Below are positions 9,843 through 47,328 of a stretch of DNA of 48,346 nt, in pieces. The notes beneath the pieces are model-generated. The model saw nothing but the letters and a program-made list of their open reading frames with translations, did not search any database and had not been told where the DNA came from. The stretch is from Candidatus Saccharimonadales bacterium. Lineage in GTDB: Bacteria; Patescibacteriota; Saccharimonadia; Saccharimonadales; Saccharimonadaceae. A program made the position numbers and the translations under genes. Where the stretch lies: positions 1 through 48,346 of the forward strand of contig JBPPME010000105.1 of assembly GCA_051305895.1 (NCBI GenBank), read 5' to 3'. Each line of letters opens with the position of its first letter. Positions within the stretch are counted from its first letter, which is position 1.

Positions 9843-9856
9843 AAGGATGGGGAAAT

Positions 9857-10927: not shown

Positions 10928-10930
10928 TCC

Positions 10931-12728: not shown

Positions 12729-12777
12729 CTGAACTGAATCGAATAGGATTGCCTGATTAATCGGGAATATAGCAAAG

Positions 12778-12806
12778 AGGACTGTGCAGGTGCGTGGTCC
12801 TTTTTG
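12778..12806 (+). terminator. Weak intrinsic terminator after pilA
   Basis: aggac-N14-gtcct followed by tttttg. The stem is only 5 bp, so it may allow read-through or attenuation. Confidence 0.35.
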
Positions 12807-12938
12807 TTTGCGTTTCGCATGAGGCTTGAAAGTGGCTTGCACTGTGTTGACAATCGCTAGTTATTAAGGCGATTTTCCTATCATACTCCGTCCTTTACTG
12901 GGCGGAGTATGACGTTAATCTATGCTATGCTAGAGCGT

Positions 12939-13832: not shown

Positions 13833-13881
13833 GAGAAGGCCTATATATTCCGCTACTATGCTTATGCTATAATTGCAGCAA

Positions 13882-14616
13882 ATGGGTATGGGCAGAAGAA
13901 AGAAACAGTTTGGCTTCACTATCGTTGAGGTATCGTTAGTGCTCGCCATTTCCAGCGCCCTAGCAGTTGCTATACTTGCTACCGCGACAATTTCTATCAA
14001 CCAGCAGCGGTACAATGATGCGGTTATGACCCTGCTTTCAAGAATCCAGCGAGAATATGTGGCGACAACCAGAGTAGTCAACGGCGGCGAAGACGGGGCA
14101 CTTGGTACGTGGTGTAATGCTCCACGAGGAACGACTGAGTGTCTCATTCTGGGACGCTTCATAGCGATTAATAGCGCGGGCACCCAGATGACTACTGGTA
14201 ATATTTATGGCATTCCTCCAACAACGGATAATCTTCCCTCTGGTGATATCGCTGCCTTACAGACATACAATTTTGAGTCATCATATGATACAGAATCGAC
14301 GAGTACATTGTCTACACAGGCATTGCCATGGAACGTGCGCATTGAGTTGCCAGAACGAACTGGTGATAGTACCTTGAACATTCTCATGCTTCGCTCGCCG
14401 CTGAGCGGGAGTGTGCTGACGTTTGTCGGTACTAGCGATAAGATCTCTGGAGATGATACAGGCGATCTTGTCAATCTAGATTACATGGTACAACGAACGA
14501 TGTGTATTGATGCGCAAGGACTTTCACCAGGCCCGACAAATGCTGTGGTGATCCGTGAACGGGCGAGTAGTCCGAATGGTGTTACGCAGCTCTTGGAGGG
14601 TAACGGATGTTTGTAA
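13882..14616 (+). CDS. Minor pilin / pseudopilin with a prepilin-type N-terminus
   Basis: MGMGRRKKQFG|FTIVEVSLVLAISSAL. TGcTATAAT at 13865-13873 lies 8 nt upstream of this ATG. The ORF track begins at a TTG inside the -10 box. Confidence 0.7.
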   Translation: MGMGRRKKQFGFTIVEVSLVLAISSALAVAILATATISINQQRYNDAVMTLLSRIQREYVATTRVVNGGEDGALGTWCNAPRGTTECLILGRFIAINSAGTQMTTGNIYGIPPTTDNLPSGDIAALQTYNFESSYDTESTSTLSTQALPWNVRIELPERTGDSTLNILMLRSPLSGSVLTFVGTSDKISGDDTGDLVNLDYMVQRTMCIDAQGLSPGPTNAVVIRERASSPNGVTQLLEGNGCL

Positions 14617-15242
14617 TAGAGCAGCATCGTCAACGAGGAGATACGCTGATCGAAGTAATTATGGCTTTTGCCGTCTTTTCTCTTGTTGCCGTAGGAGCGT
14701 TGATGTTGATGAATCGTGGAACGGCCGCTGCACAAGCAGCACTTGAAATCACGCAAACGCAAAAGGTCATCGCTTCACAAGAGGAGGTACTAAAGTATCT
14801 TCGTGATGCATATACTACCAATAAAGATGCGAGTGGTCCGAGTGCGGCTATGCGTGATATTTTGGCGAATCGCCTAGTGACGATACCGAGTCAATTCTCT
14901 AGGGAGCAATGTCCAGCATTAGGAGCGTTCCCTAATCGCGCTTTCGCGCTTAATCCTTCAAGTGACTTCGCTACTCCAACAAGTGGAATTATTACGACAC
15001 TCAACTCTATGGATGACGTAGGAGCGCCAGCATTCCCGCAGATCAATACTGCTGGGATGGGCTCGTCATCTGGTGTTTGGATTGAGGCGGTACGAGGCGA
15101 CACTGAGACCAATGCACCGGCCTTTATTGATTTTCATGTACGTGCCTGCTGGCTCAGTCCTAGTAGTGGCATAATAACGACAGGCACCACATCGCGGCTC
15201 TATATGCCGTATCTAGGTACTGTTGCTGACGAAGACGAATAG
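14607..15242 (+). CDS. Minor pilin-like protein with an atypical +1 residue
   Basis: QRG|DTLIEVIMAFAVFSLVAVGALML keeps Gly-1 and Glu+5 but has Asp at +1 instead of Phe/Met. It overlaps the preceding gene by 10 nt. Confidence 0.6.
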   Translation: MFVIEQHRQRGDTLIEVIMAFAVFSLVAVGALMLMNRGTAAAQAALEITQTQKVIASQEEVLKYLRDAYTTNKDASGPSAAMRDILANRLVTIPSQFSREQCPALGAFPNRAFALNPSSDFATPTSGIITTLNSMDDVGAPAFPQINTAGMGSSSGVWIEAVRGDTETNAPAFIDFHVRACWLSPSSGIITTGTTSRLYMPYLGTVADEDE

Positions 15243-18037: not shown

Positions 18038-18952
18038 CTAGGTGTCGGTATGGAATCGTTCGTGAACATCACGGAGGTGTTCATCAGTCACGTGTGTATA
18101 GACTTGAGTTGTACTGATATTGCTATGCCCAAGCATGCTTTGCACAGAACGGATATCGGCACCATTCATGAGTAAATCAGTTGCAAAGCTATGGCGCATT
18201 GTGTGTGGGCTGACGTGTTTGGTGATACCGGCCAGGCGAGCATACTTGTTGGTGAGTCGCTGCACACTACGAGTGGTTAGGCGACGGTAGTCACCATCAC
18301 GTGTCACTGCTGAGCTATTACGGCTGTAGTTAAGGAAGAGCGGTGGGAGATTGTCGATACGCGTAGCGAGATAATCGCTGACTTTTTCCGCGGCTGATTT
18401 GCTGATGAATATTGGCCGGTCTTTTTGACCCTTACCACGAACCATGAACTCGCGACGTTTAGCATTGATATGGTCGCGATTGAGACCGACAAGCTCTGAG
18501 ACACGCAGCCCACCAGAAAAGAGCAGTTCGATGATTGCACGATCGCGTAGACCTTCTTCGCTAGAGTTATCGATAGTATCGATCAGACGTATGACTTCGT
18601 CAAAGTGCAGGAAAGTAACCTGCTTGCGGACCGTCTTGGGTAGCTTGATCTTATCGGGGCTAAGGCTAGGAATATCCCGATCACCGAGATACCGTAGGAA
18701 ACCACGTAGAGCGATAAGGTGATAGCTCTGCGTAAGCATAGAGAGTGTATCACCATGATCATTTTCGTGCCGGTTGAGCCAGAGGCGATAACGTCGGATG
18801 ATCTCGCTAGTGATTTTTGCAACCTCAATGTCGTCGGTAAACTCTACAAACCGCTCGAGGTAGCGTTGGTAATTCTCAGCAGTCTTTGCAGATCGTCCAC
18901 CTTCCACTTCAAGTGACTCAACAAAATCGCGGATAAGCTCAGAAACGTACAT
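18038..18952 (-). CDS. xerC: Tyrosine recombinase XerC/XerD family
   Basis: SAM-like N-domain (SAKTAENYQRYLERFVEF) and the catalytic R..H.R.Y pattern: GLRVSELVGL, HTMRHSFATDLL.NGADIRSVQSMLGHSNISTTQVYTHV. I start at ATG 18952, with TATACT 6 nt upstream. Confidence 0.88.
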   Translation of the reverse strand: MYVSELIRDFVESLEVEGGRSAKTAENYQRYLERFVEFTDDIEVAKITSEIIRRYRLWLNRHENDHGDTLSMLTQSYHLIALRGFLRYLGDRDIPSLSPDKIKLPKTVRKQVTFLHFDEVIRLIDTIDNSSEEGLRDRAIIELLFSGGLRVSELVGLNRDHINAKRREFMVRGKGQKDRPIFISKSAAEKVSDYLATRIDNLPPLFLNYSRNSSAVTRDGDYRRLTTRSVQRLTNKYARLAGITKHVSPHTMRHSFATDLLMNGADIRSVQSMLGHSNISTTQVYTHVTDEHLRDVHERFHTDT

Positions 18953-19048
18953 GCTTATAGTATAACCCAACGAATTAAGAGAGGATATAGACTCTGTTTG
19001 CATCTCGGATTGAAGTCAGGTTGCATATGAGTATAGTACAATTATTGT

Positions 19049-31470: not shown

Positions 31471-32355
31471 ATGAAACAACTTATTTCCGTTCGAGCTATC
31501 ATTCGTAAAGAAGACAAAACACTTCTCGTCAGGCGAGCCAACGGACGCTCGTCTATTTTAGGCAGATATGAGCTACCAGGTGGAAAGATTGGCTATGGCG
31601 AGCAGCCGGAAGACGCCCTTTCGCGGTACGTAAAAGATGATACCGGATTGGTTGTTCGTAAGGCGCAGTTATTTGATGTCATCACCTATATAGATCATGA
31701 TGATCATGGTACCCAGTACACATTCTTGCTTTATATCGTAAGCCTTGGAGCAAACGGTAATAAAGTAGATCTCAGTCAAAATTATGATCATTACCAATGG
31801 AGTAATATACGTGAAATTCATCAGGACGAGCTTACGGAGTCATCCAAGCTGCTGCTTGGTATTTCGCAACAAGAGGTGACCATGACGGAAAAAGAAGAAC
31901 TTGTCAGCCTACCAGTGTCGCCAGAAGATGTGAAAGAGGCGAAGGTGATTGCCTACTCTGACGGTGGGTCACGGGGTAATCCGGGTCCATCCGCCTCGGG
32001 CTTTGTTATTTTGAATGAGCACGAAGATGTCTTACACCAAGGCGGCATGTACCTTGGTATTACGACGAACAATCAGGCGGAATATCATGGCATACGACTT
32101 GGTCTTGAGAAGGCGCTAGAGATGGGAGCGAAAGAGGTGGACTTCCGCATGGATAGTCTCTTGGCTGTAAATCAATTGAACGGTATCTACAAGATCAAGA
32201 ATCGTGAGCTATGGCCAATTTACGAACGCATCAAAGAACTTGCAGCAGAGTTCGATAAAGTGACCTTTACGCACGTGCGTCGTGAATTCAATCAACTTGC
32301 CGACGGTATGGTGAATAAAATTCTCGATGCACACGAGGATTATAGGGTACAATAG
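31471..32355 (+). CDS. NUDIX hydrolase - RNase HI fusion protein
   Basis: The N-terminal half carries a Nudix box, GGKIGYGEQPEDALSRYVKDDTGL. The C-terminal half is RNase H type 1: AYSDGGSRGNPGPSASGFVI, TNNQAEYHGIRLGLEKAL, DSLLAVNQL, N..AD. Confidence 0.8.
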   Translation: MKQLISVRAIIRKEDKTLLVRRANGRSSILGRYELPGGKIGYGEQPEDALSRYVKDDTGLVVRKAQLFDVITYIDHDDHGTQYTFLLYIVSLGANGNKVDLSQNYDHYQWSNIREIHQDELTESSKLLLGISQQEVTMTEKEELVSLPVSPEDVKEAKVIAYSDGGSRGNPGPSASGFVILNEHEDVLHQGGMYLGITTNNQAEYHGIRLGLEKALEMGAKEVDFRMDSLLAVNQLNGIYKIKNRELWPIYERIKELAAEFDKVTFTHVRREFNQLADGMVNKILDAHEDYRVQ

Positions 32356-32357
32356 AG

Positions 32358-32694
32358 AGACAGCTCATTAGGCGATCGCTGGCGCCTTCAAAAGCGCGAG
32401 AGGAAAGTCCGGGCAGCATAGGACATGGCAGTCGTTAACGACGACCAGGGGCGACCCTAGGGAAAGTGCCACAGAAACAATACCGCCTTTCAAAGGGCAA
32501 GGGTGAAATGAGTGAGGTAAGAGCTCACAGCGGCGTATGGCGACATACGAAGGAGGTAAACCCTGCCAGCTGCAAGGAGATCCGCATCAAAGGATGGTCC
32601 GTCCGCGGGTCGATAACCGCTCGATCTTATCAGCAATGATGAGACTAGATAGATGATCGTCCACGACAGAACCCGGCTTACCGATGGGCTGTTA
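32358..32694 (+). ncRNA. rnpB: RNase P RNA, bacterial type A
   Basis: Universal blocks are present: GAGGAAAGTCCGGGC (32398-32412), ACAGAAA, AGGGTGAAA, GGTAAGAGC and ACAGAACCCGGCTTA. P1 pairing runs between acagctcattagg and ccgatgggctgt. The 102-aa antisense ORF at 32490-32798 is spurious. Confidence 0.9.
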
Positions 32695-32695
32695 T

Positions 32696-32725
32696 AGAAA
32701 AACCACCTGTTATGGGGTGGTTTTT
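32696..32725. terminator. Bidirectional intrinsic terminator shared by rnpB and rplT
   Basis: gaaaaaccacc-tgttatgg-ggtggttttt. Confidence 0.65.
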
Positions 32726-33089: not shown

Positions 33090-33284
33090 TTAGACTCCTA
33101 ATGCTCGTTTAATGTTCTTTGCCATCGAACCGATCACTACACCGGTTGTATTGATGGCTCGTTTGCGGCTCTTGCTCTTATGTGAGAGAAGGTGGCCACC
33201 AGAGGCGCGCTGCCTTGTGATTTTTCCGCTGCCCGTGATCTTTACACGCTTCGCAGTACCTTTGTGTGTCTTTAGCTTTGGCAT
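33090..33284 (-). CDS. rpmI: 50S ribosomal protein L35
   Basis: [38 protein letters not shown]. Its ATG shares one base with the infC stop (TAATG). Confidence 0.93.
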
Positions 33285-33790
33285 TATTTACTCCTTATTG
33301 TGATACTCAAATTGCGTCCTGCCATTTGAGGTTTTTGTTCAACGATTGCATCATCTTCGAGAAGGGAGACTATTCGATCAATCAGATCGTATCCAAGTTC
33401 TTTATGCGCCATCTCGCGACCGCGATAAAATATTTGGATTCTCACCTTGTGACCTTCCGATAGGAAACCTCGAATTTTTCGTAGTTTAATATCGAGGTCG
33501 CCACTTCCAATCTTGAGACCAAAGCGCATTTGCTTAAGTTCAACTTGTTTGCTCTTAGCTCGACTTTTTTGTTGCTCTTTCATCTTCTGGTATTGGTATT
33601 TACCCCAGTCGACAACTTTTGCTACAGGTGGATCGGCGTTTGGTGAGATTTCGACAAGATCAACCCCTGCATCTTCGGCAACTTTCAGTGCTTCATTTCG
33701 GGGGAGGATGCCGAGTTGTTCCCCGCTTGGCCCGATAACGCGTAGCTCTGATGAACGAATTGCTTCGTTGATACGAACAGATTGACTGAT
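33284..33790 (-). CDS. infC: Translation initiation factor IF-3 with a non-canonical ATC start
   Basis: The ORF track shows only the C-terminal 99 aa. The frame continues upstream as [69 protein letters not shown], the IF3 N-domain. There is no in-frame ATG, GTG or TTG. ATC at 33790-33788 lies 7 nt after AAAGGAG. Confidence 0.85.
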
Positions 33791-34630: not shown

Positions 34631-35031
34631 GGGGCTGATATAGCTTTCGACAGATGGAATTTAACAGATTATTTTGCAGGTCGTATCACTGACGTAATCA
34701 GTATTTTTAATTGCAACAACTAAATTGCAAAGTGCTGTAGCATACGCTAAAGAGCTTTTTACTCCTCGCGCGCTCGCACTACAAACTGCCTAGTATTTGG
34801 CGGTCGTATTTACCCAGACGCCTACTATGGGTGAATGCGCTATATCAGAAGGCTAGAATATGAATGTTATCGTGACGTATGTATTCGAATTACTTTCACG
34901 ATTCACTACGCAGAGCATCTTTGTTTGATTCTTTAGCTTCGCAGGTGATAAAATAATTGAAACGAACTATGCCTGTAGACGAATAATCAGTTACCGTTTG
35001 GACGCGGGGGCAGTACCCGCCAGCTCCACCA
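34631..35031 (+). ncRNA. ssrA: Transfer-messenger RNA (tmRNA)
   Basis: The 5' GGGGCTGATATAGCTTTCGACAG pairs with the 3' ...GGACGCGGGGGCAGTACCCGCCAGCTCCACCA, forming a tRNA-Ala-like acceptor/T arm with a G-U pair and CCA. TGtTATAGT lies at 34605-34613, 17 nt upstream. A candidate tag ORF runs 34713-34793. Confidence 0.92.
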
Positions 35032-35093: not shown

Positions 35094-35129
35094 ATAAAAA
35101 AACAACCGCCTGCGAGGAACGGTTGTTTT
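35094..35129. terminator. Second terminator-like hairpin flanked by A and T runs
   Basis: aaaaaaacaaccg-cctgcgaggaa-cggttgtttta. Confidence 0.45.
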
Positions 35130-36014
35130 ATGTGGAGTTTTTTGAATTCTTTTTGTTTTTGGCTCCTGGATAACTTTTTTATTCAAGAACTACCCCTATA
35201 ATAGGGCTTAAAAACGCTTAAGTCAATACTATTTTTCAAAATTATTTGTATAAAAAATGGCATATGTTTTCGATGCTTTGTTGGCCGCTACATATAGTGT
35301 CTATACCCATAAAGTGGGCGACAGCAGACACAATGAACGGCCTATGTCATGAATATAATCGGCTGTATATTGAGTCTGACATGCTTGATTTTTGTATATA
35401 AAGGCATGGAGAATTGGGGGTTTAGGTCGCTTTGTTTTTCCAGGTTAACTAACTTTCTCATGGCTGCCGAACGTATTTGTCCACGGTATGACAATACATT
35501 CGGCAGCGGGCCAACGAGAAACTAGGGAGCAACATAATGTGATGGGCTACGCAGAGCGTTACTATTTTGTTAAGCGATTTTGCAGTCGGCTTAGGCTTAG
35601 GTTGTTACCGGAATAATATCGCTGGGTAGGCACGTGGATGCTGCTGGGGGTGCTATGACTACTTGGTGTGTATACGATGCGAGATAACTTTATACAACAT
35701 AGCAGTTTCGTCAGCATAGCAAATTATGTACATGGTTTTATGTCCTATGTCATGAAAGATGTTTGTGATGTGAGCATGGGACACATTTGATGCTCGTTTC
35801 TGCAGTTGAGTGAATTGGCGTAGGTTGTACTTATGGTTATTATCATTGCGTAGGTTTAAGTACCACCAAAATAATGAAGCTAGAGTGATAATAGTAAGCT
35901 GCATAAATAGTTTGTAGCTAATATAACAACTCAATAATAAATATATTAGATATATATTAACAGATACAATTTTAATGTTGTTAACATAACCTCTATAAAA
36001 TACATCAGTATGTA

Positions 36015-36043
36015 TTGACCAAACATGCTACTTGTGCTAATGT
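36015..36043 (+). promoter_or_regulatory. Orphan sigma70-type promoter (TTGACC-17-TGcTAATGT) in ORF-free DNA, facing the ATPase module
   Basis: It has the same -35 hexamer and spacing as the rRNA promoter at 47777. The nearest plausible start codons are 280 nt (36324) and 457 nt (36501) downstream. Confidence 0.45.
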
Positions 36044-36323
36044 TAAGACAAGCTTTTACAAACACAAAAAGCAAAAAAACACATTAACAATTATAACTGA
36101 CTGTACGATCCGCACCTTTGACGTACAATCGATATCATCACAGTATGGGTAAACAACAATATACATACATCTTGTATGCATACGCACCTTTAATACTTAT
36201 GCGAAATTGATGATGGTATCGATGCTCCGCCAAAAGCGTTGAGCGCGCATAGAATCAGTACCTATGCACTGAGTTAAACCTTGATATCCTTTCAAAAGAT
36301 AGCAGCGTAACTACTCAGTGCAT

Positions 36324-36488
36324 ATGAGGAACATTCAGTGCAAGTGGATGCCCCAGCAACTGCTGGAGCGGTCAGTCGCCTCGAGCGATAGGTTGTTATG
36401 GAAGCACGCGCCCTATTATTTGTTTACAGCGGCGGTTGTCGCAACCGTAACGTATAGACTTATCGCTCAGGCTCTCTTGAAAAAATGA
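36324..36488 (+). CDS. Possible 54-aa small membrane protein (below the ORF-track cutoff)
   Basis: MRNIQCKWMPQQLLERSVASSDRLLWKHAPYYLFTAAVVATVTYRLIAQALLKK has one hydrophobic helix. Its ATG abuts the 3' arm of a 12-bp perfect inverted repeat. There is no clear SD. Confidence 0.25.
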   Translation: MRNIQCKWMPQQLLERSVASSDRLLWKHAPYYLFTAAVVATVTYRLIAQALLKK

Positions 36489-36500
36489 TATAGTATAGAT

Positions 36501-36887
36501 ATGATAAGCAAGGTGATTGGTAGTATCACAGTGGCAGCAGTAGTGCTGCTTTTTCTTGTTTTAAATACAACTTCACCTTCTAGTGCAGGACCAGTCGGCA
36601 TTTTGGCCGTCTTTTTTTTGTTGTATATTTCGCTTACTGGACTCCTCACCAGTGTTGTCGTCATTATGAATAGGATAGTTGTTAAAATATCATCATCTGT
36701 TAGAACACGTAAACCGATAGGACAGCTATCATGGAGACGGGCATACTATATCGCTTCAGTTGTAGCACTTGGGCCGGTAATGCTGATTGGCATGGGCTCT
36801 GTCGGTAGGGCAGGTATGGCAGAGTTATTACTGGTGACCATTTTTGTGTGTATCGGATTGTTTTATGTCGAAAAAAGGTCGCGGTAG
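36501..36887 (+). CDS. Polytopic (about 4 TM) membrane protein, unknown function
   Basis: Hydrophobicity pattern only. TGaTATAGT lies 6 nt upstream of the ATG. Confidence 0.5.
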   Translation: MISKVIGSITVAAVVLLFLVLNTTSPSSAGPVGILAVFFLLYISLTGLLTSVVVIMNRIVVKISSSVRTRKPIGQLSWRRAYYIASVVALGPVMLIGMGSVGRAGMAELLLVTIFVCIGLFYVEKRSR

Positions 36888-36927
36888 AGAATAAATATTC
36901 TGAATCGATTATGCTATAATTACAGAT

Positions 36928-37347
36928 ATGGAACCGAAATCTCCCGAAAGCTCAGCTGATCAGCTTCCAACCCCGATTGAATTCACGCCAATTTCTCCTG
37001 AAGTTGGCCAGGCTCAATACGAGTCAACACCTGAGCGTCCTACGCGCTCCCCGGAACAAGGGCAAGAGTTACATAATGCCACGACTGTAGCCGCGCCAAT
37101 TCAAACTGCACAGATAGCGGCACCCATCGTATCTGCGACCCAGGCAGTTGCGAGGATTACGGCTGTAGATGACAATCCGTCAGCAGCCGCTGACGAAGAT
37201 CTTATCGAGAAGGAATGGGTAGATAAAGCGAAGCAAATCATCTCAACGACAAAACAGGATCCATACAGACAAGAGCGAGAGGTAGGGAGACTACAGGCCG
37301 ACTATCTCAAGAAGCGGTATGGTAAGGAGCTGGGGAGCTCATCCTAG
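36928..37347 (+). CDS. Hypothetical protein with a Pro/Ala/Thr-rich disordered N-half and a helical C-terminal domain
   Basis: TGcTATAAT lies 7 nt upstream of the ATG. The C-terminus reads DLIEKEWVDKAKQIISTTKQDPYRQEREVGRLQADYLKKRYG. No family recognised. Confidence 0.5.
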   Translation: MEPKSPESSADQLPTPIEFTPISPEVGQAQYESTPERPTRSPEQGQELHNATTVAAPIQTAQIAAPIVSATQAVARITAVDDNPSAAADEDLIEKEWVDKAKQIISTTKQDPYRQEREVGRLQADYLKKRYGKELGSSS

Positions 37348-37356
37348 GGGCGAGGC

Positions 37357-40158
37357 ATGGAAGGGGGTCTCGTAGTAGGCGTAGTGGGAGTCGCAGCGCT
37401 ACTTGTTGGTGCGGGCTTTTTTATCTATAGCCAATATCAGAAGACACTTCGTGAAGCGAAGAATTATGAACGTGGGCTAAAGATGGTACCGATGATCATC
37501 CATCTTCCTCCAGAAAGTGATGATATAGATGGTGGCGGGCGTGACCAACGCGACTTGACGGAAGAAATCCTGTCGCAGGCCGAGGTGATGTATAACGTAA
37601 TTGCTAGCACGGCAACAAAAGGATTCAAAGCGAAGATTTACGGACAGCGTCATATCTCATTTGAGATCGTTGCTCGTGATGGACTGGTATATTACTATGC
37701 AGTAGTTCCGATTGTGCTCGTAGACATTGTGAAGCAGGCGATCGCTGCAGCATACCCATCGGCTAGGCTTGAGGAGGTCGAAGAACATAACATCTTTAGC
37801 GAGGTCGGCAAGATTAGTGGTACTATCGGTGGTGAATTTACCCTCAAGAAGGAAGCATACTATCCAATCGCAACATATCAGGAGTCGAAGCGTGATGCCT
37901 CGCGGGCACTATTGAATGCTCTTTCCTCAGCGGGCAGAGAAGACGGTATCGGTATTCAAATCCTTCTGCGTCCAGCTGGAGAGGGATGGGTGAAGCGTTC
38001 AATTGGCGAAGCGGAGCGAATCACGAAGGACAAGGGCAAAAAGACCGGTCTGGCTGGCGTACTTGCACCAAAGGATGTCATGGAAGCTCTTTGGAGACCG
38101 CCGGAAAGTGGTGATGCGAAAGATAAGCCCGAGGACAAGCAGCTGACTACACTTGAAAAGCAGAAGGTGGAGGCAATCGAAGATAAGACACGTTATCCTG
38201 GCTATGAAACATTGATTCGCGTCGTTGTTTCATCTAATACCGCTGCTCGGTCACAGGCATTGATGTCCAACGTCGTGTCGGCTTTTTCGCTGTTTGATTC
38301 TCCGTCAAACAATGGTTTCAAATTTGCACTCTCGAAAAATATCGAAGAGCTTGTCACGGCGTATATTTTTCGCTTTTTCCCGCAGAGTGTTACAGAGAAC
38401 GTGCTCAACACTGTTGAGCTAGCGACACTCTTCCATCTACCAGATCAAAAGAGTATTCCAACATCGCAAGTACAACGACAGCAGAGTAAGCAAGTCGATG
38501 GCCCGACCGAAGTTATGGAAGAGGGAGTGCTGCTAGGCTATAACGAATTTCGTGGCGTGAAGAAGCCAATCAGACTCGGGACGAATGATCGCCGACGTCA
38601 TACATATATCATCGGACAGACGGGTACGGGTAAGTCAGTTCTGCTCGAAAACCTAGCGTACCAGGATATGATGGATGGTCGTGGCTTCGCTTTCGTCGAT
38701 CCGCATGGCGACTCGGTGGAGCATTTACTCGGTCAGGTACCAAAAGAGCGCGTTGAGGATGTTATTTACTTCAATCCTGGTGATATGGAGAATCCGATCG
38801 GACTTAATATGTTTGAGTTTGATCATCCTGACCAAAAGGACTTCTTAGTGCAAGAGTCTATCAATATGCTATACGGACTCTATGACCCGGGACACACGGG
38901 TATCGTTGGCCCACGCCTTGAGCATATTTTCCGTAACTGTGCGCTGCTCCTCATGTCCGATCCTGCGGGCGGTACATTTATTGACATTCCAAAGCTGTTG
39001 ATCGACCAGGAGTTTATGAAGAGTAAGCTGAAGTATGTGACTGATCAGACAGTATTAGATTTCTGGACGAAGGAATTTCCTGCCTCGCAACGATCCAACG
39101 AAGCGGGTGAGGTCATCTCGTGGGTAGTCTCGAAATTTGGTCCGTTTATTAGTAACGATGCCATGCGTAATATCATCGGTCAGACGAAGAGTGGCTTCAA
39201 CCTCCGAGACATCATGGACAACAAGAAAATTTTGCTGGTGAATCTATCAAAGGGTAAGATGGGTGAACTCAATTCGAAGTTACTTGGTATCATCTTCGTG
39301 ATGAAATTCCAAGCTGCTGCCATGGGTCGTGCGAATGTGCTGGAAGAGCAGCGTGAGGACTTCTCGTTGTTTGTCGATGAGTTTCAGAATTTCGCGACCG
39401 ATAGCTTTGAGTCTATCCTTTCTGAGGCACGAAAGTATCGCCTTAATCTTGTTCTGGGTAACCAGTTCATGACGCAACTGACAGATAAGATTCGTGAGGC
39501 AATCATCGGTAACGTCGGTACGGTTGTGGCGGGGCGTATCGGTATCACAGACGCAGAAATATTAGTTAAGAAGTTCACACCAACATTCGATACGGAGGAT
39601 CTGACAAAGATGCCAAACCATCAGTCGATCACCAGCGTAATGATCAATAACGTACCTTCAGCACCATTTAGCATGTCTTGGATTGCACCAATGGGTGAGC
39701 CGAACATGCAACTAACTGATGCGCTCAAGCGTCTCTCTGCGGCCAAGTATGGACGTCCTCGTGGGATGGTTGAGAAAGAGATTTTCGACCGCCTAGGAGC
39801 TGCCGAAAAAGAGAAAAAGCAACGACTCGAAGACCTACGGGGTCGTGCTAATGCTAGCTCCCAGCCAACAGCAACGACTAGTTCTAGTGCACCGAAGTCG
39901 CCAGGGTCATCAGGTTCATCATTCCTCGATGATTGGCTCGCGAAGCGGCAGCAACTTGGTGCCTCGCAGCCGCCGGTAGTACGTTCTCTAGCTCCACCGA
40001 TTACTCCAGATGTGGTACGGCAAAAAGCGCCTTCAGCGCCATTGGTTCCATCTAAATCTCAAACACCTTCACCTGTATCGGAAGATACAGAAGATCGTTT
40101 GCATATACGTGGCAACGAGCAGTCGAGTAATGATGGAGTGACGCTCAAGATTCGTTAA
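37357..40158 (+). CDS. Membrane-anchored VirD4/TraG/TraD-like (type IV coupling-protein-like) P-loop ATPase with a novel N-domain and a Ser/Pro-rich tail
   Basis: Domain order: N-terminal TM; an uncharacterised domain of about 350 aa; Walker A IIGQTGTGKSVLLENL; FAFVDPHGD; Walker B FSLFVDEFQNFAT; RKYRLNLVLGNQFMTQL, which is like the T4CP Qs..QL block; and about 100 aa of low-complexity S/P/A tail. Confidence 0.7.
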   Translation: MEGGLVVGVVGVAALLVGAGFFIYSQYQKTLREAKNYERGLKMVPMIIHLPPESDDIDGGGRDQRDLTEEILSQAEVMYNVIASTATKGFKAKIYGQRHISFEIVARDGLVYYYAVVPIVLVDIVKQAIAAAYPSARLEEVEEHNIFSEVGKISGTIGGEFTLKKEAYYPIATYQESKRDASRALLNALSSAGREDGIGIQILLRPAGEGWVKRSIGEAERITKDKGKKTGLAGVLAPKDVMEALWRPPESGDAKDKPEDKQLTTLEKQKVEAIEDKTRYPGYETLIRVVVSSNTAARSQALMSNVVSAFSLFDSPSNNGFKFALSKNIEELVTAYIFRFFPQSVTENVLNTVELATLFHLPDQKSIPTSQVQRQQSKQVDGPTEVMEEGVLLGYNEFRGVKKPIRLGTNDRRRHTYIIGQTGTGKSVLLENLAYQDMMDGRGFAFVDPHGDSVEHLLGQVPKERVEDVIYFNPGDMENPIGLNMFEFDHPDQKDFLVQESINMLYGLYDPGHTGIVGPRLEHIFRNCALLLMSDPAGGTFIDIPKLLIDQEFMKSKLKYVTDQTVLDFWTKEFPASQRSNEAGEVISWVVSKFGPFISNDAMRNIIGQTKSGFNLRDIMDNKKILLVNLSKGKMGELNSKLLGIIFVMKFQAAAMGRANVLEEQREDFSLFVDEFQNFATDSFESILSEARKYRLNLVLGNQFMTQLTDKIREAIIGNVGTVVAGRIGITDAEILVKKFTPTFDTEDLTKMPNHQSITSVMINNVPSAPFSMSWIAPMGEPNMQLTDALKRLSAAKYGRPRGMVEKEIFDRLGAAEKEKKQRLEDLRGRANASSQPTATTSSSAPKSPGSSGSSFLDDWLAKRQQLGASQPPVVRSLAPPITPDVVRQKAPSAPLVPSKSQTPSPVSEDTEDRLHIRGNEQSSNDGVTLKIR

Positions 40159-40190
40159 GCTGTATAAATCGCAGGGGTGATCAAGGAGAT

Positions 40191-40766
40191 TTATCGTTTG
40201 CCGGTGATCATGATACGAGTAAAGTCAACGATGATACCGATGAGCCATCCGAGTATGAAAGCCCCAATGGTTTCAAATCCTGAGAGAGGATAGCCGTCAT
40301 GGCGAGCCCAGAGGTATAGTCCTAGCGTTGCAAGTGCAGCAAAGAACGATCCTAGTAGGATGGCATTTGGACGGGCGATGGTAGCGCCGATTGCTTCACT
40401 GGCTCTTTCGACAGGAGCAACATGGATTAGTTTACTAAATGCACGGCTTGGTACTGACATTTGGGACTGAACATGTTTCATTTCGCGTTTAAAGTTAGCG
40501 TTGCGTGCAGCTTTAGTATTATTGGTGCGATGATGACTACGTTTTTCAGCAGGGGAAGACTCTTGGTGGACTTCCTTCTTTTCCTTTTCGGTTTTATTGA
40601 TGGCTTCAAGCGCTTCGTACTTCGCCTGTTCGGCATTTGCCCGGTGTCCCTTTTCAGCATTGCGCCCACGTTCGGAAGCGAGGCGCTCTCGCTCGGCTTT
40701 GCTTGTGTGTTCTAATGTCTCACTATTGATATGTTCACCAGAGTTGTTGATTAGTCGTTCTGCCAT
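40191..40766 (-). CDS. Hypothetical protein: highly charged Lys/Glu/Arg-rich N-half plus two C-terminal TM helices
   Basis: Composition and hydrophobicity only. It lies directly downstream of, and is co-oriented with, the LPXTG protein gene. Confidence 0.5.
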   Translation of the reverse strand: MAERLINNSGEHINSETLEHTSKAERERLASERGRNAEKGHRANAEQAKYEALEAINKTEKEKKEVHQESSPAEKRSHHRTNNTKAARNANFKREMKHVQSQMSVPSRAFSKLIHVAPVERASEAIGATIARPNAILLGSFFAALATLGLYLWARHDGYPLSGFETIGAFILGWLIGIIVDFTRIMITGKR

Positions 40767-40787
40767 AAATCCCCACCTTTATTCTTA

Positions 40788-42644
40788 CTAAATTACACCT
40801 AGAGTCACATCACGACGAATGAGACGGACTTCTTTACCGAGCTGACGGGAGCGAGCGTAGAAGTAGACGACGACTGCGAAGAGTATGACGGCGAATGCCA
40901 TATTTTCACCAGGCCCGGTCGTCGGTAACTCTGAGACCGCTTGTTCAACGATAACTTTCTCAGGAGGGCAGGCAATTGTGATGTCGACTGAGTTGCCGAA
41001 AGTATTCGTCATGTGACAGTCAAATGACGAGGCATCACTTGTACCGGTATTGGTAGTTGGAATTGTTTTGAGTACGCGAATGACGAATGTGCGTGTCTGC
41101 TTCATCTTTGGTGCGACTTCGACTTCTGGCCATATCAACTCCTTGGTAGCTTGATTGAAGGTACCACCGCCCATGTCAATGACTTGAGCATACTGCAGGA
41201 TGTCACCGAGTGACTCTGTAAGACTGACTTTTTTGCCGGTCAGTCCGACGTTTTCCATATTGATGGTGTAGCTGATACGATCACTAGCTTTTGCTGGCAC
41301 CGTGCTTGCATCAACGTTACCTTGGCTGATGTTGTTCGAGGTCTTCGTGCTTATAAATTCAGGGGCACACTCGACATCTTTAATCCAAATTTCTGGGTTA
41401 CTAGGACAAGGCTGGCAATCTGGATGATTTGGAGTCAGCGCTGGATTATATGCACAAACGGCCGGATCTGCGACGGTGAATTGTTTTACACAGTCCTGAG
41501 GATCAGTCTTATCACCAAGGCTGGTGGCGACTGCTAGCCGAGCGGTATATTTACCGGGGCTCTTGAGGGTGACCGCGTCGGCCTCAGTAGAGAGTTCGTT
41601 GGTCGCAACTGAGCGTGTCGCTACCGTTTTGCCGCTCTCATCAGTGACAGCAAACGTATATTTGCTGACCGTTGCGCCACCATTTGTAGTAACTGCACCG
41701 CTCATATCGATATTGGTGTGGTTCGTAATAATGACGCCGAGCCGGCTACAGACTGCCACTGGTGTCCGAGGAGGTGCTGCGATGGTAAAATTTGCACTAC
41801 AATCAGCGTCTCGTTGTACGCCAACTGTTGTATCCACGCGGACACCAACTTTGTAGACACCAACTTTCGATTGATTGTAGGTATAGCTTGCCGACTCAGC
41901 GCCACTGGCAAATTCTTTGGTATGGATGGCTGTGCCTGAGGCATTCCTTACGACGAAGGTATATGATTTAATCTTCGCGCCACCAGGTACGTCTGCTTTT
42001 GCGTCGAATCGCACACGAGTACGATCAACCAGAGTAGGATTGAGATTACTACAGCTTGCGGTAGGTAGTTTGTCTTCTGGTGGTCGTTTTTTGGTAATGA
42101 GGTTACCGCAGTCCATCTTGATAGCAAACCAACCGAACTTTGCTGAGTGTCCAATAAAGACCGGGTATGGTGCACGTCCTTCTTGTGTGAGCGCCATTGG
42201 GCGGTGGTAGACCGTCTTCGATGAACCGTCCGCATGGTAATAGGTGTAGGCGCGTTGACCTTGAGCATTACTGTAAAGACTAGTCATGGACCAGTTGTAG
42301 AAGCCATCTTTGCCAACGGTGCCGGATTTTGCTGCGGCGATTTCAGCACGTGTGATACCGAGTGAATTGAATAGCCCCTTGATGTCGTGGCCATTGTTAT
42401 CGTATGCCTTGAGGAATTCATCGACACTGCTGACGCCGCCACTAACGAAGTCAGCGGGGCTCGAGGCGTTAGCCGCTTCTGGTGGCTGAAAGACAGCGAA
42501 TGATTGTACGATAAGAGCGAATGCAGTAAAAATAAGTCCTAAACGACGAGTTACCTGCTCTCTGCGGAGACGTTTCGCATAAAAGCTCAGCTGTCCGACG
42601 AGAGCGGGACTAAACGCGAGGTTTGACACAATTTTGCGAAACAT
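40788..42644 (-). CDS. Sortase-substrate (LPXTG-type) cell-surface protein with Ig-like / DUF11-like repeats
   Basis: It has an N-terminal signal/TM (LGLIFTAFALIVQSFAVF). Repeated beta-rich segments carry paired Cys. The C-terminal sorting signal is LPTTGPGE plus the hydrophobic stretch MAFAVILFAVVVYFY plus ARSRQ. Confidence 0.75.
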   Translation of the reverse strand: MFRKIVSNLAFSPALVGQLSFYAKRLRREQVTRRLGLIFTAFALIVQSFAVFQPPEAANASSPADFVSGGVSSVDEFLKAYDNNGHDIKGLFNSLGITRAEIAAAKSGTVGKDGFYNWSMTSLYSNAQGQRAYTYYHADGSSKTVYHRPMALTQEGRAPYPVFIGHSAKFGWFAIKMDCGNLITKKRPPEDKLPTASCSNLNPTLVDRTRVRFDAKADVPGGAKIKSYTFVVRNASGTAIHTKEFASGAESASYTYNQSKVGVYKVGVRVDTTVGVQRDADCSANFTIAAPPRTPVAVCSRLGVIITNHTNIDMSGAVTTNGGATVSKYTFAVTDESGKTVATRSVATNELSTEADAVTLKSPGKYTARLAVATSLGDKTDPQDCVKQFTVADPAVCAYNPALTPNHPDCQPCPSNPEIWIKDVECAPEFISTKTSNNISQGNVDASTVPAKASDRISYTINMENVGLTGKKVSLTESLGDILQYAQVIDMGGGTFNQATKELIWPEVEVAPKMKQTRTFVIRVLKTIPTTNTGTSDASSFDCHMTNTFGNSVDITIACPPEKVIVEQAVSELPTTGPGENMAFAVILFAVVVYFYARSRQLGKEVRLIRRDVTLGVI

Positions 42645-42788: not shown

Positions 42789-44795
<2,007 letters not shown>

Positions 44796-44805: not shown

Positions 44806-47328
44806 ATGGATAAAAATACAACACAAAATGACGCACCACTAGAAAACGATGTACCAATCGAAGGTGATATCGTAGCAGACACTCAAGGTCTCGAGCAGCG
44901 CACGCTCGAGAAGGTCATGGAAGACAGTTTCTTCCGTTACTCGATGAGTGTGATTATTGATCGCGCACTGCCTGATGTCCGTGACGGATTGAAACCGGTG
45001 CACCGTCGTATCCTATTCTCCATGAATCAAAACGGTAACCGCAGTGGGTCTAAATTTGTAAAAAGCGCTCGTATCGTCGGTGATGTAATGGGTAAGTATC
45101 ATCCTCATGGCGACTCAGCGATCTACGACTCGATGGTACGTCTGGCGCAGCCATGGTCATTGCGCTATCCGCTTGTACAGGGTCAGGGTAACTTTGGCTC
45201 AATGGACGGTGACCCGGCAGCAGCGATGCGATATACGGAGGCTCGCATGGCGAAACCTGCCGATGAGATGCTTGCGGACATCGACAAGGAGACTATTAAC
45301 TTTCGTGATAATTTCGATGGTTCTGAGCAAGAACCTGTTGTACTTCCGGCGAAATTGCCGAATCTGCTACTCAATGGCCAAATCGGTATCGCGGTCGGTA
45401 TGGCGACCAATATACCACCCCATAACCTTAGTGAGCTGGTCGATGCTTCTATCGAACTTATCGATAACGAGCACGCCACGCTTGATGACCTATTGAAGCA
45501 TGTTAAGGGCCCTGACTTTCCGACCGGCGCGATTGTTTATGGTGGCGCACCGATGAAGCAGGCGTATCAGACCGGACGCGGTAGCGTGATGGTTCGTGCG
45601 GTAGCGAATATTGAAGAAACTAAAAAAGGTCGTCACCAGATTGTTGTGACGGAGATTCCATATGGTGTAAATAAGGCAACGCTTGTTGAGAAGATCGCTG
45701 AACTCTATAAAGATAAGAAGATCAATATCAGCGACCTTCGTGATGAGACATCTCGTGGTAAAGTTCGCATCATTATCGAGGTCAAGAAGGATGGCTACCC
45801 GAAAAAGGTATTGAATCAGCTCTATAAGCTTACTTCATTGCAAACTAGTTTTAATTACAACGTGCTTGCGTTAATCGATGGCATCCAGCCGAAGATTCTC
45901 GGTCTCCAGGAAATGCTCCAAGAGTTTATCAAGCATCGTCAGCAAGTTGTTCGTCGTCGTACCGAGTTTGAACTTCGCAAGGCGAAAGAACGTGCGCATA
46001 TCCTCGAGGGCTACAAGATCGCTCTTGATCACATCGATGAAGTCATCAAGACGATTCGGGCCAGCAAGACTAGTGAAATAGCAGAAAAAGCACTCATCAA
46101 GCAGTTTGGACTGAGTGAGATTCAGGCGAAAGCTATCTTGGCTATGCAACTTCGCCGTCTGACTGGTCTAGAGCGTGATGCTATCGAAAGTGAACTCAAG
46201 GAACTTCTGGCGCTGATTTCTAAGCTTGAAGCAATTCTGGCTGACGAGAAAGAGATTTTGAAAATCATCAAGACCGAACTGCTCGAAATGAAAGAGAAAT
46301 ATGGGGACGAGCGTCGTAGTCAGATCATCAATCATGAACTTGGTAGGTTCAGTGATGAAGAGCTGATCCCAGAAGAAGAGTCAGTCATATTGCTTACGGG
46401 CGAGAACTACATTAAGCGCACACTAGTGAGTGAATACCGGCGTCAAAATCGTGGCGGCAAGGGCAAGCGTGGTATGACGACTAAGGAAGAGGATATCATC
46501 GAGCAACTCGTACCATCGAGCACACACGATTGGCTACTCTTCTTTACCAATAAGGGTCGCGTCTTCCGTCTCAAGGCTTATGAAGTACCGGCAGCGAGTC
46601 TTGCCGCTAAGGGCGTCGCAGCGGTCAATCTCTTGCAACTCCAACCTGAAGAGAAGATTACCTCTATCATCAAGCATGCCAAGGACGCGAGTCCTGATGG
46701 TTACCTCTTCATGACGACTACCAAGGGTACGGTTAAGAAGACGCCACTCAAAGATTACGCAAATATTCGCACGAACGGCTTAATCGCTATCAAACTTGAC
46801 GACGGCGACGAGCTACGTTGGATCCAACAGACGACTGGTGATGCAGATGTTATCATCTCAACTTCTGCTGGCCAGGCAATTCGCTTCAACGAGAAGGATG
46901 CTCGTCCGATGGGACGCTCAGCTCGCGGTGTCCGTGGTGTCCGCTTACGTCCGAATGACCGAGTAGTCGGCATGGATATCGTCATTGATGATGCACGTGA
47001 ACTCCTAGTTATTAGCGAGAAGGGATATGGCAAAGCGACTAAGGTGGCACACTTCACTTCGCACAAACGCGGTGGTGTCGGTATCAAGGCGGCTGTTGTG
47101 ACGAATAAGACCGGTCCGATTATCTCGGTACGCACACTCGATCCTGAACTTGCTGAGATACTTCTCATCTCGAAGAATGGTCAGACGATTCGCCTAGGCC
47201 GCAAGGATATCCCAACGATTGGACGAACTACTCAAGGTGTTCGTATAATGAAGCTTAATGAGAGTGATACGATTGCATCGATTGGCCTCATGCCTGAGCA
47301 ACAAGCAAGCGACGAAGAAGAGGAGTAG
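44806..47328 (+). CDS. gyrA: DNA gyrase subunit A
   Basis: [14 protein letters not shown], the QRDR-like [24 protein letters not shown], the active-site AAMRYTE, and C-terminal beta-pinwheel repeats. Confidence 0.97.

Follow-up and report, generated by a model that had tools for sequence, protein, structure and literature searches.

The 48,346-nucleotide (nt) contig JBPPME010000105.1 (positions 1 to 48,346 of the forward strand; assembly GCA_051305895.1, a Candidatus Saccharimonadales bacterium), the whole of which is called the window here, encodes between its transfer-messenger RNA (tmRNA) gene, ssrA, and gyrB-gyrA a membrane-anchored ATPase of 933 amino acids (aa; 37357-40158, + strand). 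Its nucleotide-binding domain (NBD) is, to judge from the sequence, of the VirD4/TrwB type of the type IV coupling proteins (T4CPs), its N-terminal domain is predicted to fold like that of VirB4, and its ortholog in another species is essential. We are confident that the region around this gene consists of three independent, vertically inherited chromosomal units, and the same confidence extends to what each of them is. Unit A is a promoter, P1, with a structured RNA of ~420 nt that is specific to Saccharimonadia. Unit B, the core, comprises a gene for a protein with four transmembrane (TM) segments, the 4-TM protein, and a probably leaderless two-gene operon for a 139-aa protein and the ATPase. 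Unit C is a convergent, dispensable, lineage-specific operon for a predicted sortase-anchored adhesin and a 2-TM protein. As to function, our leading proposal, to which we would give a little under an even chance, is that the ATPase supplies the missing coupling or energizing function to the chromosomal type IV secretion system (T4SS), which is essential, has no relaxase and is encoded elsewhere in the genome.

The ATPase and its operon

The P-loop domain of the ATPase spans residues ~400-800 (38554-39756, +), as placed by Pfam, NCBIfam and PDB sequence matches, and carries Walker A (GQTGTGKS, residues 420-427; 38614-38637), Walker B (LFVDE, residues 671-675; 39367-39381) and the motif GNQFMTQL (residues 701-708). 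The Pfam cut-offs are passed for TraG-D_C (25.5 against 22 bits) and TrwB_AAD_bind (23.9 against 20.5 bits), the best NCBIfam models are SXT_TraD (3e-11) and the VirD4-like CD1115 (4e-9), and the best sequence matches among solved structures are TrwB (1e-6 with the single sequence, 2e-8 with a profile) and DotL. For distant members of the family the matches to T4SS-DNA_transf and TrwB_AAD_bind (~1e-12) extend beyond 300 residues. VirB4-type motor models remain below cut-off (AAA_10, 16.5 against 27.5 bits; TIGR00929, 16.3 against 643 bits), and neither CagE_TrbE_VirB nor the FtsK models of Pfam and NCBIfam match the protein. An earlier note on this DNA, made from the letters alone, had called the protein VirD4/TraG-like on the strength of Walker A, Walker B and a Q..QL block; the motifs and the T4CP family models bear this out. 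A possible helical insertion at about residues 490-600, between Walker A and Walker B, is seen in a low-confidence full-length AlphaFold2 (AF2) model (45 close homologs, pLDDT 43.6), and the TrwB_AAD_bind profile spans the same region in relatives.

At the N-terminus a single TM helix (residues ~4-25; 37366-37431, +) is followed by basic residues, and in the AF2 model of residues 1-400 described below one long helix runs over residues 2-41. By the positive-inside rule the N-terminus would lie outside the membrane and the remainder of the protein in the cytoplasm. The opposite end is a variable, disordered, Ser/Pro-rich tail, delimited by alignment (residues ~830-933; 39844-40155, +), which holds a short amphipathic motif, SSFLDDWLAKRQQLG (residues ~854-868); S855, F856, L857, D858, W860, L861, K863 and R864 are invariant among 45 Saccharibacteria sequences.

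The domain between anchor and motor, left unassigned in the earlier note, is DUF8128 (Pfam PF26449; residues ~40-390; 37474-38526, +), an assignment that is precomputed on all homologs. With the first 395 residues alone (TM helix and DUF8128) as query, 1,354 protein clusters at 50% identity were matched; our literature search found no mention of DUF8128. Profile searches of the PDB, with the whole protein and with the standalone domain, gave no sequence-level match for this part. Residues 1-400 were modelled with AF2 from 83 diverse aligned sequences (pLDDT 85.7, pTM 0.81), and the model was compared with the PDB using Foldseek, a step that the earlier note had suggested, and only TrwK/VirB4 proved significant among solved structures. 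The 14 best matches are all TrwK, the VirB4 of R388 (E 8e-6 to 1e-3, 13 of them at E <= 0.001; probability 1.0, TMq 0.36-0.39, identity 8-9%), and the next PDB match has an E of 0.06. No structure of TrwB, FtsK, HerA or a VirB4 C-terminal domain alone was matched, and the query has no P-loop; for these reasons the match was assigned to the VirB4 N-terminal domain. DUF8128 is therefore predicted, with moderate structural confidence, to have a fold resembling the N-terminal domain of VirB4, the aligned residues not being displayed by Foldseek.

Unit B opens with the 4-TM protein gene (128 aa; 36501-36887, +), an ORF with four hydrophobic segments, which is followed by the gene for the 139-aa protein (36928-37347, +) and by the ATPase gene. 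An extended -10 element, TGATATAGT (36486-36494, +), lies 6 nt before the ATG of the 4-TM gene, with no Shine-Dalgarno sequence; TGnTAnnnT is present within 30 nt of this start in 46 of the 80 Saccharimonadia loci described below, mostly 6-7 nt before it, and is conserved in the alignment. A second extended -10 element, TGCTATAAT (36912-36920, +), lies 7 nt before the ATG of the 139-aa gene, again with no Shine-Dalgarno sequence, and in 74 loci such an element stands 6-10 nt before an in-frame start of that gene. Extended -10 elements 6-10 nt from a start codon, kept across species, indicate leaderless transcripts. The first element is probably the promoter of a leaderless 4-TM mRNA and the second probably the leaderless promoter of the operon for the 139-aa protein and the ATPase. 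The stop codon of the 139-aa gene and the ATPase start are 9 nt apart here (-3 to 39 nt in 80 species), and the ATPase start is preceded by a ribosome-binding site, GGGGCGAGG.

The 4-TM protein has its hydrophobic segments at about residues 5-21, 31-56, 81-99 and 105-123. It is found in all 80 loci at 30-50% identity (ortholog SEML1_0140), with no Pfam, NCBIfam or PHROG match. The 139-aa protein joins a variable, Pro/Ala-rich disordered N-terminal half to a conserved helical C-terminal stretch of ~50 aa (DEDLIEKEWVDKAK...LQADYLKKRYGKEL); in all 80 loci conservation is confined to the C-terminal half (ortholog SEML1_0141). We consider it a candidate adaptor of the ATPase.

Homologs of the ATPase number more than 7,400, of which the top 120 are full-length and 73-86% identical. 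Every close protein match bears the name Candidatus Saccharibacteria or Saccharimonadales, and the window is accordingly that of a member of Saccharimonadia (Saccharibacteria/TM7). A scan for relatives of the ATPase in one genome per GTDB species gave more than 580 loci; the best 80, all Saccharimonadia, were retained, and 13 window proteins, the only genes mapped within the ±10 kb flanks, were placed on them by tblastn. Across these 80 loci the order rplT-rpmI-infC ... 4-TM, 139-aa, ATPase, convergent 191-aa and LPXTG genes, gyrB-gyrA-PAP2 is kept, so that the conservation of neighbourhood raised in the earlier note is present in 76-80 of the species representatives. The 4-TM, 139-aa and ATPase genes are each found in 80 loci, the 191-aa gene in 79 and the LPXTG gene in 76, shortfalls being mostly contig ends. 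Median identity over the 80 species is 72% for the ATPase, against 83% for gyrB, 80% for gyrA and 54% for PAP2, and it is 49, 44 and 37% for the 139-aa, 191-aa and 4-TM proteins, respectively. Synteny together with an identity near that of gyrase indicates that the ATPase is under housekeeping-level constraint and is no part of a mobile island. The Saccharimonadia chromosome is generally collinear, with ribosomal genes, gyrase and 16S equally fixed, and adjacency by itself therefore says little about function.

Genetic data are available for Southlakia epibionticum ML1, where the locus reads infC, YifB, a gap, SEML1_0140-0144, gyrB, gyrA, PAP2 and 16S (Wang et al., 2023; PMC10633639). The sizes given there are 354 bp for SEML1_0140, 420 bp for SEML1_0141 and 3060 bp for SEML1_0142, with SEML1_0143 (582 bp) and SEML1_0144 (1608 bp, DUF11) on the minus strand (PMC10633639). 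These five genes are orthologous to the 4-TM, 139-aa, ATPase, 191-aa and LPXTG genes of the window, with like order, sizes and flanks; the NCBI name of SEML1_0142 is 'TraM recognition domain-containing protein'. Transposon sequencing (PMC10633639 Table S1) scored each gene as essential (ES), growth defect (GD) or non-essential (NE). SEML1_0142 was ES/ES/ES, hence essential at every time point, with 11 of 114 input insertions recovered; SEML1_0141 was GD/ES/ES, that is essential, with none of nine input insertions recovered; SEML1_0140 was NE/GD/GD, a growth defect; SEML1_0143 and SEML1_0144 were NE. SEML1_0142 is in addition flagged as belonging to a core family enriched in Patescibacteria (PMC10633639), and a second T4CP-like paralog, SEML1_0293, is non-essential (PMC10633639 Table S1). 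In the same paper SEML1_0140-0144 appear in supplementary tables only and the T4SS is stated to lack a recognizable coupling protein, while the domain assignment of SEML1_0142 gives the FtsK motor (ECOD e2iutB2) as nearest P-loop template (PMC10633639). The idea of a substitute for FtsK was rejected, since ML1 has a separate, complete and essential canonical FtsK, SEML1_0096 (PMC10633639).

A later survey, from 2025, of 3,035 Patescibacteria genomes recorded 5,713 VirD4-like homologs in 2,918 of them, 148 of these homologs near virB4, and VirB4 in 2,417 genomes (PMC12102498). It also states that the t4cp of ML1 is not essential (PMC12102498). This fits SEML1_0293 (NE) and not SEML1_0142 (ES); the literature thus needs correcting in that one of the two T4CP-like paralogs of S. 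epibionticum is essential.

A structured RNA upstream of the operon

Promoter P1 (36015-36043, +), read from the sequence, consists of a -35 box TTGACC, a 17-nt spacer and an extended -10 TGcTAATGT, with a predicted transcription start at ~36050. It had been noted earlier as a strong orphan promoter. The promoter itself is conserved, TTGA[CT]-N14-17-TGnTAnnnT followed by AAGCTTTT being present in 55 of the 80 loci, 394-603 nt upstream of the 4-TM gene. P1 scores only 8 out of 12 and is absent from the consensus-scan list. It is no orphan, for it heads a structured RNA.

P1 is followed by a conserved A-rich start, AAGCUUUUACAAAAACAAAAAAGC, and then by a multi-helix region that ends ~25 nt before the 4-TM gene. 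Covariation delimits a structured non-coding RNA of ~420 nt at about 36050-36475 (+), with an A-rich 5' segment and then at least five helices (36117-23/36228-34, 36130-41/36210-21, 36265-73/36314-22, 36349-55/36364-70 and 36378-92/36459-72). GAGCGGTCA, at 36366-36374, is invariant, as is the element GAGCGGUCA. RNAalifold applied to an alignment of 27 species found compensatory changes in 33 of 51 pairs. For a control on 46 pairs, spurious pairing with the untranscribed -35 box was excluded and the partners were slid by 1-3 columns: 93.7% of cells are paired as observed, compared with 31-44% with slid partners; 34 pairs, compared with 12-19, show double changes; and the cells with double changes number 201, compared with 21-42. 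The observed pairing values were reached by none of 500 shuffles, and the G-U pairs are consistent with the + strand. A covariance model of the 3' domain, made from 26 species, gave exactly one match in each of the loci of the 54 other species, always on the + strand and just upstream of the 4-TM gene, and the RNA is thus present in all 80 Saccharimonadia species. The model found no match in the loci of other classes of the Candidate Phyla Radiation (CPR), nor in the locus of a deep-branching relative (L086).

A comparison with 4,227 Rfam 15 models at E <= 1 returned nothing but chance matches to microRNA models (E ~0.1), and the homologous place in six other species gave no Rfam match at gathering thresholds. 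Signal recognition particle (SRP) RNA, 6S RNA, RNase P, a T-box and a riboswitch were considered as identities and rejected, there being no Rfam match; RNase P and tmRNA are located separately. Compared by eye with the generally known 4.5S sequence, the RNA does not appear to fit the SRP helix-8 motif. It is a previously undescribed large structured RNA, conserved in all 80 sampled Saccharimonadia species. There is no intrinsic terminator between it and the 4-TM gene, and for this reason it may be either a free RNA or a long 5' leader.

An ORF of 56 codons (36318-36488) is situated inside the RNA, and a 54-aa TM peptide had been suggested here. We rejected it as a gene: tblastn matches occur in only three of the 80 loci, the indels are not multiples of three and compensatory base-pair changes run across the ORF.

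The adhesin operon and the rest of the window

The two genes of unit C lie on the minus strand and encode the LPXTG protein (618 aa; 40788-42644) and, second in the operon, the 191-aa 2-TM protein (40191-40766). The LPXTG protein was rightly recognized in the earlier note as a sortase-type surface protein. After its LPTTG motif (residues 573-577; 40914-40928) come 16 hydrophobic residues and a basic tail, RSRQLGKEVRLIRR, and an N-terminal hydrophobic segment at about residues 35-55 ends in ANA; with a putative secretion signal, LPXTG, hydrophobic segment and basic tail it has the predicted features of a sortase substrate. The first 60 aa (42465-42644) are conserved, the Ig-like middle section is variable and the DUF11-like C-terminal domain is again conserved. 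Matches to DUF11 (7e-4) and GBD_IRG7_N (2e-5) are weak and below the Pfam cut-offs, and the middle section gives weak matches to PKD, GBD and FlgD-Ig-like families. A sorting motif (LPKTG, LPHTG, LPRTG, LPQTG, LPTTG and one LPQAG) is found in 69 of 75 orthologs, which are 142-817 aa long.

In the 191-aa protein a charged, Lys/Glu-rich N-terminal half precedes a conserved C-terminal half with two hydrophobic segments; this protein is found at 35-57% identity in 79 of the 80 loci and has no significant match in Pfam or NCBIfam. The Pfam scan of the window covered 36 ORFs, namely the six of the locus and 30 others, including every ORF of at least 239 aa, about a dozen shorter ORFs lying outside it; no sortase is among the 36. 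ML1 has two, SEML1_0327 and SEML1_0711 (PMC10633639). We read the pair as an ordinary lineage-specific surface-protein operon that is fixed between the ATPase gene and gyrB. A variable adhesin without a link to the ATPase is essentially what was found, contrary to the connection drawn in the earlier note.

Two further observations concern the tail of the LPXTG protein. The 21-residue cytoplasmic tail, RSRQLGKEVRLIRRDVTLGVI (within 40788-40913), and the first 60 residues are far more conserved than the extracellular repeats, and a few orthologs keep the TM segment and the tail but lack LPXTG. A tail so conserved is not what one expects of a sorting signal, and it may have a second role.

All of the ORFs that had been reported between ssrA and gyrBA are present, and the tmRNA gene lies just upstream. 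This gene (34631-35031, +; Rfam RF00023, 93.4 bits, full model) bounds the region on its upstream side; ARAGORN missed it, though the Rfam model detects it. The RNase P RNA was located by the Rfam scan at 32360-32696. On the other side are gyrB (42822-44795, +) and gyrA (44806-47328, +), both called as ORFs, beyond which come a divergent-PAP2 gene and the first part of the 16S rRNA gene. GC content is 0.48-0.50 across the coding genes, matching the rest of the window, and 0.38-0.42 across the non-coding 34-37 kb. The earlier statement that the window holds no relaxase, VirB4 or integrase is right for the first two among the 36 ORFs compared with Pfam and wrong for the third: a tyrosine recombinase of the Phage_integrase family with an N-terminal SAM-like domain, most likely XerC/D, is encoded at 18038-19003 (-), 17 kb from the locus, as identified with Pfam. 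The locus is, as had been said, no recognizable conjugative element.

A complete type IV pilus cluster occupies 5164-15242, with PilM (5164-6222), PilB (8079-9842), PilT (9857-10927), PilC (10931-12142), a prepilin peptidase (12909-13832) and three proteins with prepilin N-methylation motifs (12183-12728, 13873-14616 and 14607-15242). Pilin and PilM genes are found at a distance of 3-6 kb from the DUF8128-ATPase in two other CPR classes, which may be coincidence. At 31471-32355 (+) a NUDIX hydrolase is fused to an RNase H-like (RVT_3) protein, and by tblastn this fusion gene lies upstream of the RNase P RNA in 19 of the 80 related loci and in L086. The infC ORF as called has only 99 aa (33284-33583, -), IF-3 in relatives has 140-194 aa and nucleotide conservation runs upstream to ~33830 in 48-57 loci; infC of the window probably starts at a codon other than ATG, GTG or TTG, as it does in many bacteria. 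The YifB ATPase gene that ML1 has between infC and the tmRNA region is not in the window.

Downstream of the tmRNA gene a block of ~165 nt (35095-35260) is kept in 63-73 of the 80 species at 71-85% identity. It contains, at about 35100-35131, a hairpin and then a T-run, which have the form of a terminator whichever strand is read; one pair covaries, being AU in 10 species and GC in nine. It also contains a conserved minus-strand promoter, TTGACT-17-TATTAT, at 35226-35198. The two elements suggest a small RNA of ~95 nt on the minus strand, from ~35190 down to 35100; the block has no Rfam match. The ~700 nt that follow (35284-35984; GC 0.38) contain no real-looking ORF of 60 aa or more and show no nucleotide similarity to any of the 80 loci.

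Function of the ATPase and comparison with known systems

A profile search showed that the ATPase family spans Patescibacteria, including Magasanikbacteria and Parcubacteria, with proteins of 810-890 aa and 25-41% identity. In five loci from other CPR classes (L081/L082, L083, L084, L085 and L087) a small gene of 153-189 aa with no Pfam match directly precedes the ATPase gene. Like the 139-aa protein, its product is disordered in the N-terminal half and helical in the C-terminal half in four of the five, that of L085 being shorter and differently built. Homology of these small proteins to the 139-aa protein was rejected (hhalign probability 0.45%), and only position and build are common to them. 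The ATPase gene is followed by dnaX, either at once or up to three genes further on, in four of the five loci, and no adhesin is found there. The L086 locus has genes of 117 and 171 aa before the ATPase and gyrB directly after it, with no adhesin operon; the two small proteins resemble the 4-TM and 139-aa proteins by eye, and the 171-aa protein is likely to be a homolog of the latter. Eight contexts of the family with Pfam-labelled genes contain no virB4 and no relaxase.

DUF8128 also occurs on its own in Magasanikbacteria and related classes, in proteins of 465-480 aa with apparently two N-terminal TM segments and no ATPase domain (L083 17519-18556, -; L109 9001-10404; L110 9001-10416). Their genes are preceded by an ORF of 52-53 aa and lie 7-8 kb from a DUF8128-ATPase-dnaX group. 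The possibility that they are TrsD-like components encoded beside virB4, which would have tied the domain to the T4SS, found no support, as their neighbourhoods are of SecA/SecDF or cell-wall genes with no virB4.

Outside the Patescibacteria, relatives are found in phages. PHROG 5156 (phrog_5156) matches residues 75-823 of the ATPase at 1e-88, and a Foldseek search of BFVD with the N-domain retrieved proteins of Bacillus phages JL, G (gp156) and Slash (E 5e-18 to 2e-16, TMq 0.56-0.59). Using tblastn, 52 phage records were obtained, mostly Bacillus, with gp156 of phage G at 3e-29 over residues 84-832. In CampHawk (SPO1-like; L112, KF669649.1, 93497-98205) the gene lies between those for ParM-like and Replic_Relax ('plasmid replication-relaxation') proteins and is co-oriented with the ParM-like segregation protein, four tiny ORFs and the Replic_Relax protein; in siphophage 055SW001 (L111) the homolog is among early DNA-metabolism genes. 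As the phage homologs (PHROG 5156) have no known function, no function can be transferred from them. IMG/VR contigs carry NBD-only relatives of 432-522 aa. One of them (L088, UViG_3300015370_000561, 7995-9293) is a soluble protein of 432 aa with 43% identity to residues 377-809, and its gene has a holin, an M23 peptidase, a PLD-family nuclease and a PD-(D/E)XK nuclease as neighbours.

Saccharibacteria and other Patescibacteria have no nucleotide, amino-acid or lipid synthesis of their own and live attached to host bacteria. To our knowledge no T4SS before their chromosomal one had been shown to be essential for its own carrier. By analogy with TrwB and VirB4, the ATPase would form a membrane-apposed hexamer and hand over a macromolecular substrate to a membrane channel at the expense of ATP. 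If it serves this T4SS as coupling or energizing ATPase, the VirB4-like N-domain would dock it on small membrane subunits, which may be VirB3/PrgI-like T4SS proteins, the 4-TM protein encoded with it, or both. Adaptor or substrate-recognition elements might be provided by the 139-aa protein and by the C-terminal motif of the ATPase. The N-terminal domain of VirB4 is said to contact VirB3 and VirB8 in the R388 structures of Macé and colleagues from 2022 (PDB 7O3J-7O43).

Several points weigh against a role in the T4SS. No ATPase gene that was examined, in the window or in the eight labelled contexts, has virB4 near it, and in the literature only 148 of 5,713 homologs do (PMC12102498). VirD4-like proteins occur in 2,918 of 3,035 genomes and VirB4 in 2,417 (PMC12102498), and some genomes therefore seem to hold the ATPase without a T4SS, with the incompleteness of metagenome-assembled genomes as a caveat. 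The standalone DUF8128 genes of other CPR classes are not beside virB4 either, full-length homologs occur in Bacillus phages, which have no T4SS, and the neighbours of the ATPase are replication genes (gyrBA here, dnaX in other classes). The ATPase has one TM helix where canonical T4CPs have two. The likeness to the VirB4 N-terminal domain comes from one solved protein, at a moderate TM-score of 0.36-0.39 and with no sequence signal, and the essentiality data come from another species, grown only in co-culture.

Much of this would suit an essential membrane motor, independent of the T4SS, that moves or anchors nucleic acid with the 4-TM and 139-aa proteins as its partners, either in chromosome or DNA handling tied to replication and segregation or in the import of host DNA or RNA. 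We hold such a role, the main rival to coupling, to be rather unlikely, and keep it in consideration mainly because phages without a T4SS carry homologs, with ParM-like/Replic_Relax neighbours in CampHawk and early DNA-metabolism neighbours in 055SW001. In the contexts examined the ATPase gene is not clustered with virB4, VirD4-like proteins are present in 96% of the 3,035 genomes compared with 80% for VirB4, and soluble NBD-only relatives lie beside nucleases on phage-like contigs. A 2026 preprint describes the uptake of host RNA by a cultivated Patescibacterium, by an unresolved route (10.64898/2026.06.21.733656). The gene stands beside gyrB-gyrA, directly so in L086, and has dnaX nearby in four of five other-class loci, but this adjacency may merely reflect origin-proximal housekeeping neighbourhoods. 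Moreover, no DNA-binding or channel domain was identified, ML1 already possesses a canonical essential FtsK, and ComEC-dependent DNA uptake is dispensable in ML1 (PMC12857230). Coupling accounts more simply for the VirB4-like N-domain and for a co-essential T4SS that lacks a T4CP. The earlier note had gone further in joining the ATPase, the small membrane proteins and the LPXTG/2-TM operon into one host-contact or macromolecule-transfer apparatus. Their adjacency is kept in 76-79 of the 80 species, and the conserved tail of the adhesin (R-S/T-K/R-Q-L..E-V/I-R-x-I-R) and its N-region could in principle contact a cytoplasmic partner. However, in a region that is collinear throughout adjacency is little informative, the two gene groups are convergent with separate promoters, and the adhesin varies widely in length and repeats. 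Mutagenesis in ML1 had opposite outcomes, the ATPase and the small protein being essential and the adhesin and 2-TM protein not. Nor does the adhesin operon separate the ATPase from gyrB in L086 or occur near the ATPase in other CPR classes, and a single apparatus is on these grounds very improbable.

A tmRNA gene is a common integration site, and ssrA close by, a T4CP-like ATPase, related NBDs on phage-like contigs and the fall of GC to 0.38-0.39 between the tmRNA gene and the operon might together recall a remnant of an integrative and conjugative element (ICE) or other mobile element. Such an origin has next to no chance of being correct and is ruled out by synteny and essentiality, att repeats not having been searched for. 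The order is identical in 80 of 80 species representatives from oral and environmental lineages, the ATPase approaches gyrase in identity, its ortholog is essential and its family core, the coding genes have the GC of the rest of the window (0.48-0.50), and the 36 ORFs include no relaxase or VirB4 and, as sole recombinase, the XerC/D-like protein 17 kb away. An ICE remnant, which the earlier note had allowed for, is thus not what the locus turned out to be. A bolder view, which we regard as improbable, is that the 4-TM protein, the 139-aa protein and the DUF8128-ATPase form a self-contained essential translocase, independent of the VirB4-type T4SS, a third lineage of the VirB4/VirD4 ATPase radiation that places a VirB4-like N-domain on a VirD4-like motor, has been borrowed by some Bacillus phages and carries nucleic acid through the membrane or along it, for example in the acquisition of host RNA or DNA; in Saccharimonadia a dedicated large structured RNA, of a new class, would stand before it and might control it.

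In the published view a recognizable coupling protein of the T4SS is either missing or dispensable (PMC10633639, PMC12102498). The ATPase offers a concrete, essential and near-universal candidate for the coupling or energizing role, with a VirB4-like N-domain that suggests a route for docking; were it independent of the T4SS, it would be an essential translocase of a new type. In either case SEML1_0140-0142 provide a defined target in a genetically tractable Saccharibacterium, and the build of the ATPase bears on the divergence of VirB4 and VirD4. The RNA would add a new large structured RNA to a phylum with almost no described RNA biology. The annotation of the ATPase family and its orphan status were already in the literature; new are the assignment of the domain, the recognition of which paralog is essential, the conserved leaderless operon, the RNA and the relatives in phages.

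Among known systems, the RNA of unit A may be compared with OLE, ROOL, GOLLD and the raiA motif, which like it are several hundred nt long, multi-helix with covariation, lineage-restricted and fixed in genomic position; unlike them it has no match to any Rfam 15 model, is confined to Saccharimonadia and is possibly a 5' leader. The LPXTG protein shares with Gram-positive LPXTG/DUF11 adhesins and pilin-like proteins a signal region, Ig-like repeats, a DUF11-like domain and variation in length, and is set apart from the Gram-positive LPXTG adhesins by the unusually long and conserved 21-aa tail and 60-aa N-region.

The Bacillus phage proteins (G gp156, CampHawk_129, JL, SP-10 and CP-51) resemble the ATPase itself over the full length, DUF8128 and T4CP-like NBD included, at only 21-23% identity and with ParM-like, Replic_Relax or early-gene neighbours. 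FtsK/SpoIIIE and HerA belong to the same superfamily; the ATPase differs from FtsK/SpoIIIE in having no FtsK_SpoIIIE Pfam match, no gamma domain and no 4-TM FtsK N-domain. With VirB4/TrwK (PDB 7O42, 7O43 and 8RTD), whose TrwK is the only significant solved-structure match of its N-domain, it shares a two-part plan, with a predicted N-terminal alpha/beta domain of ~350-400 aa followed by a P-loop domain of the FtsK/HerA superfamily. Unlike VirB4, its NBD scores as VirD4-type, and in Saccharibacteria a bona fide VirB4 is encoded separately (SEML1_0008 in ML1).

The T4CPs (VirD4/TrwB/TraD/TraG) are the remaining comparison. Canonical members have two TM helices with a small periplasmic loop, whereas the ATPase has one TM helix and then a soluble domain of 350 aa, DUF8128, between the anchor and the NBD. 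Its tail is Ser/Pro-rich and not acidic, and it is found without a relaxase or conjugative context, as a chromosomal, core, vertically inherited and essential gene. The helical stretch of the low-confidence model may correspond in position to the all-alpha domain of T4CPs. In common with T4CPs the ATPase has a homologous NBD with Walker A, Walker B and Q..QL motifs, a membrane anchor, a gene that, as for some T4CPs, is encoded away from virB4, and a variable C-terminal tail of the kind that T4CPs use for the binding of partners.

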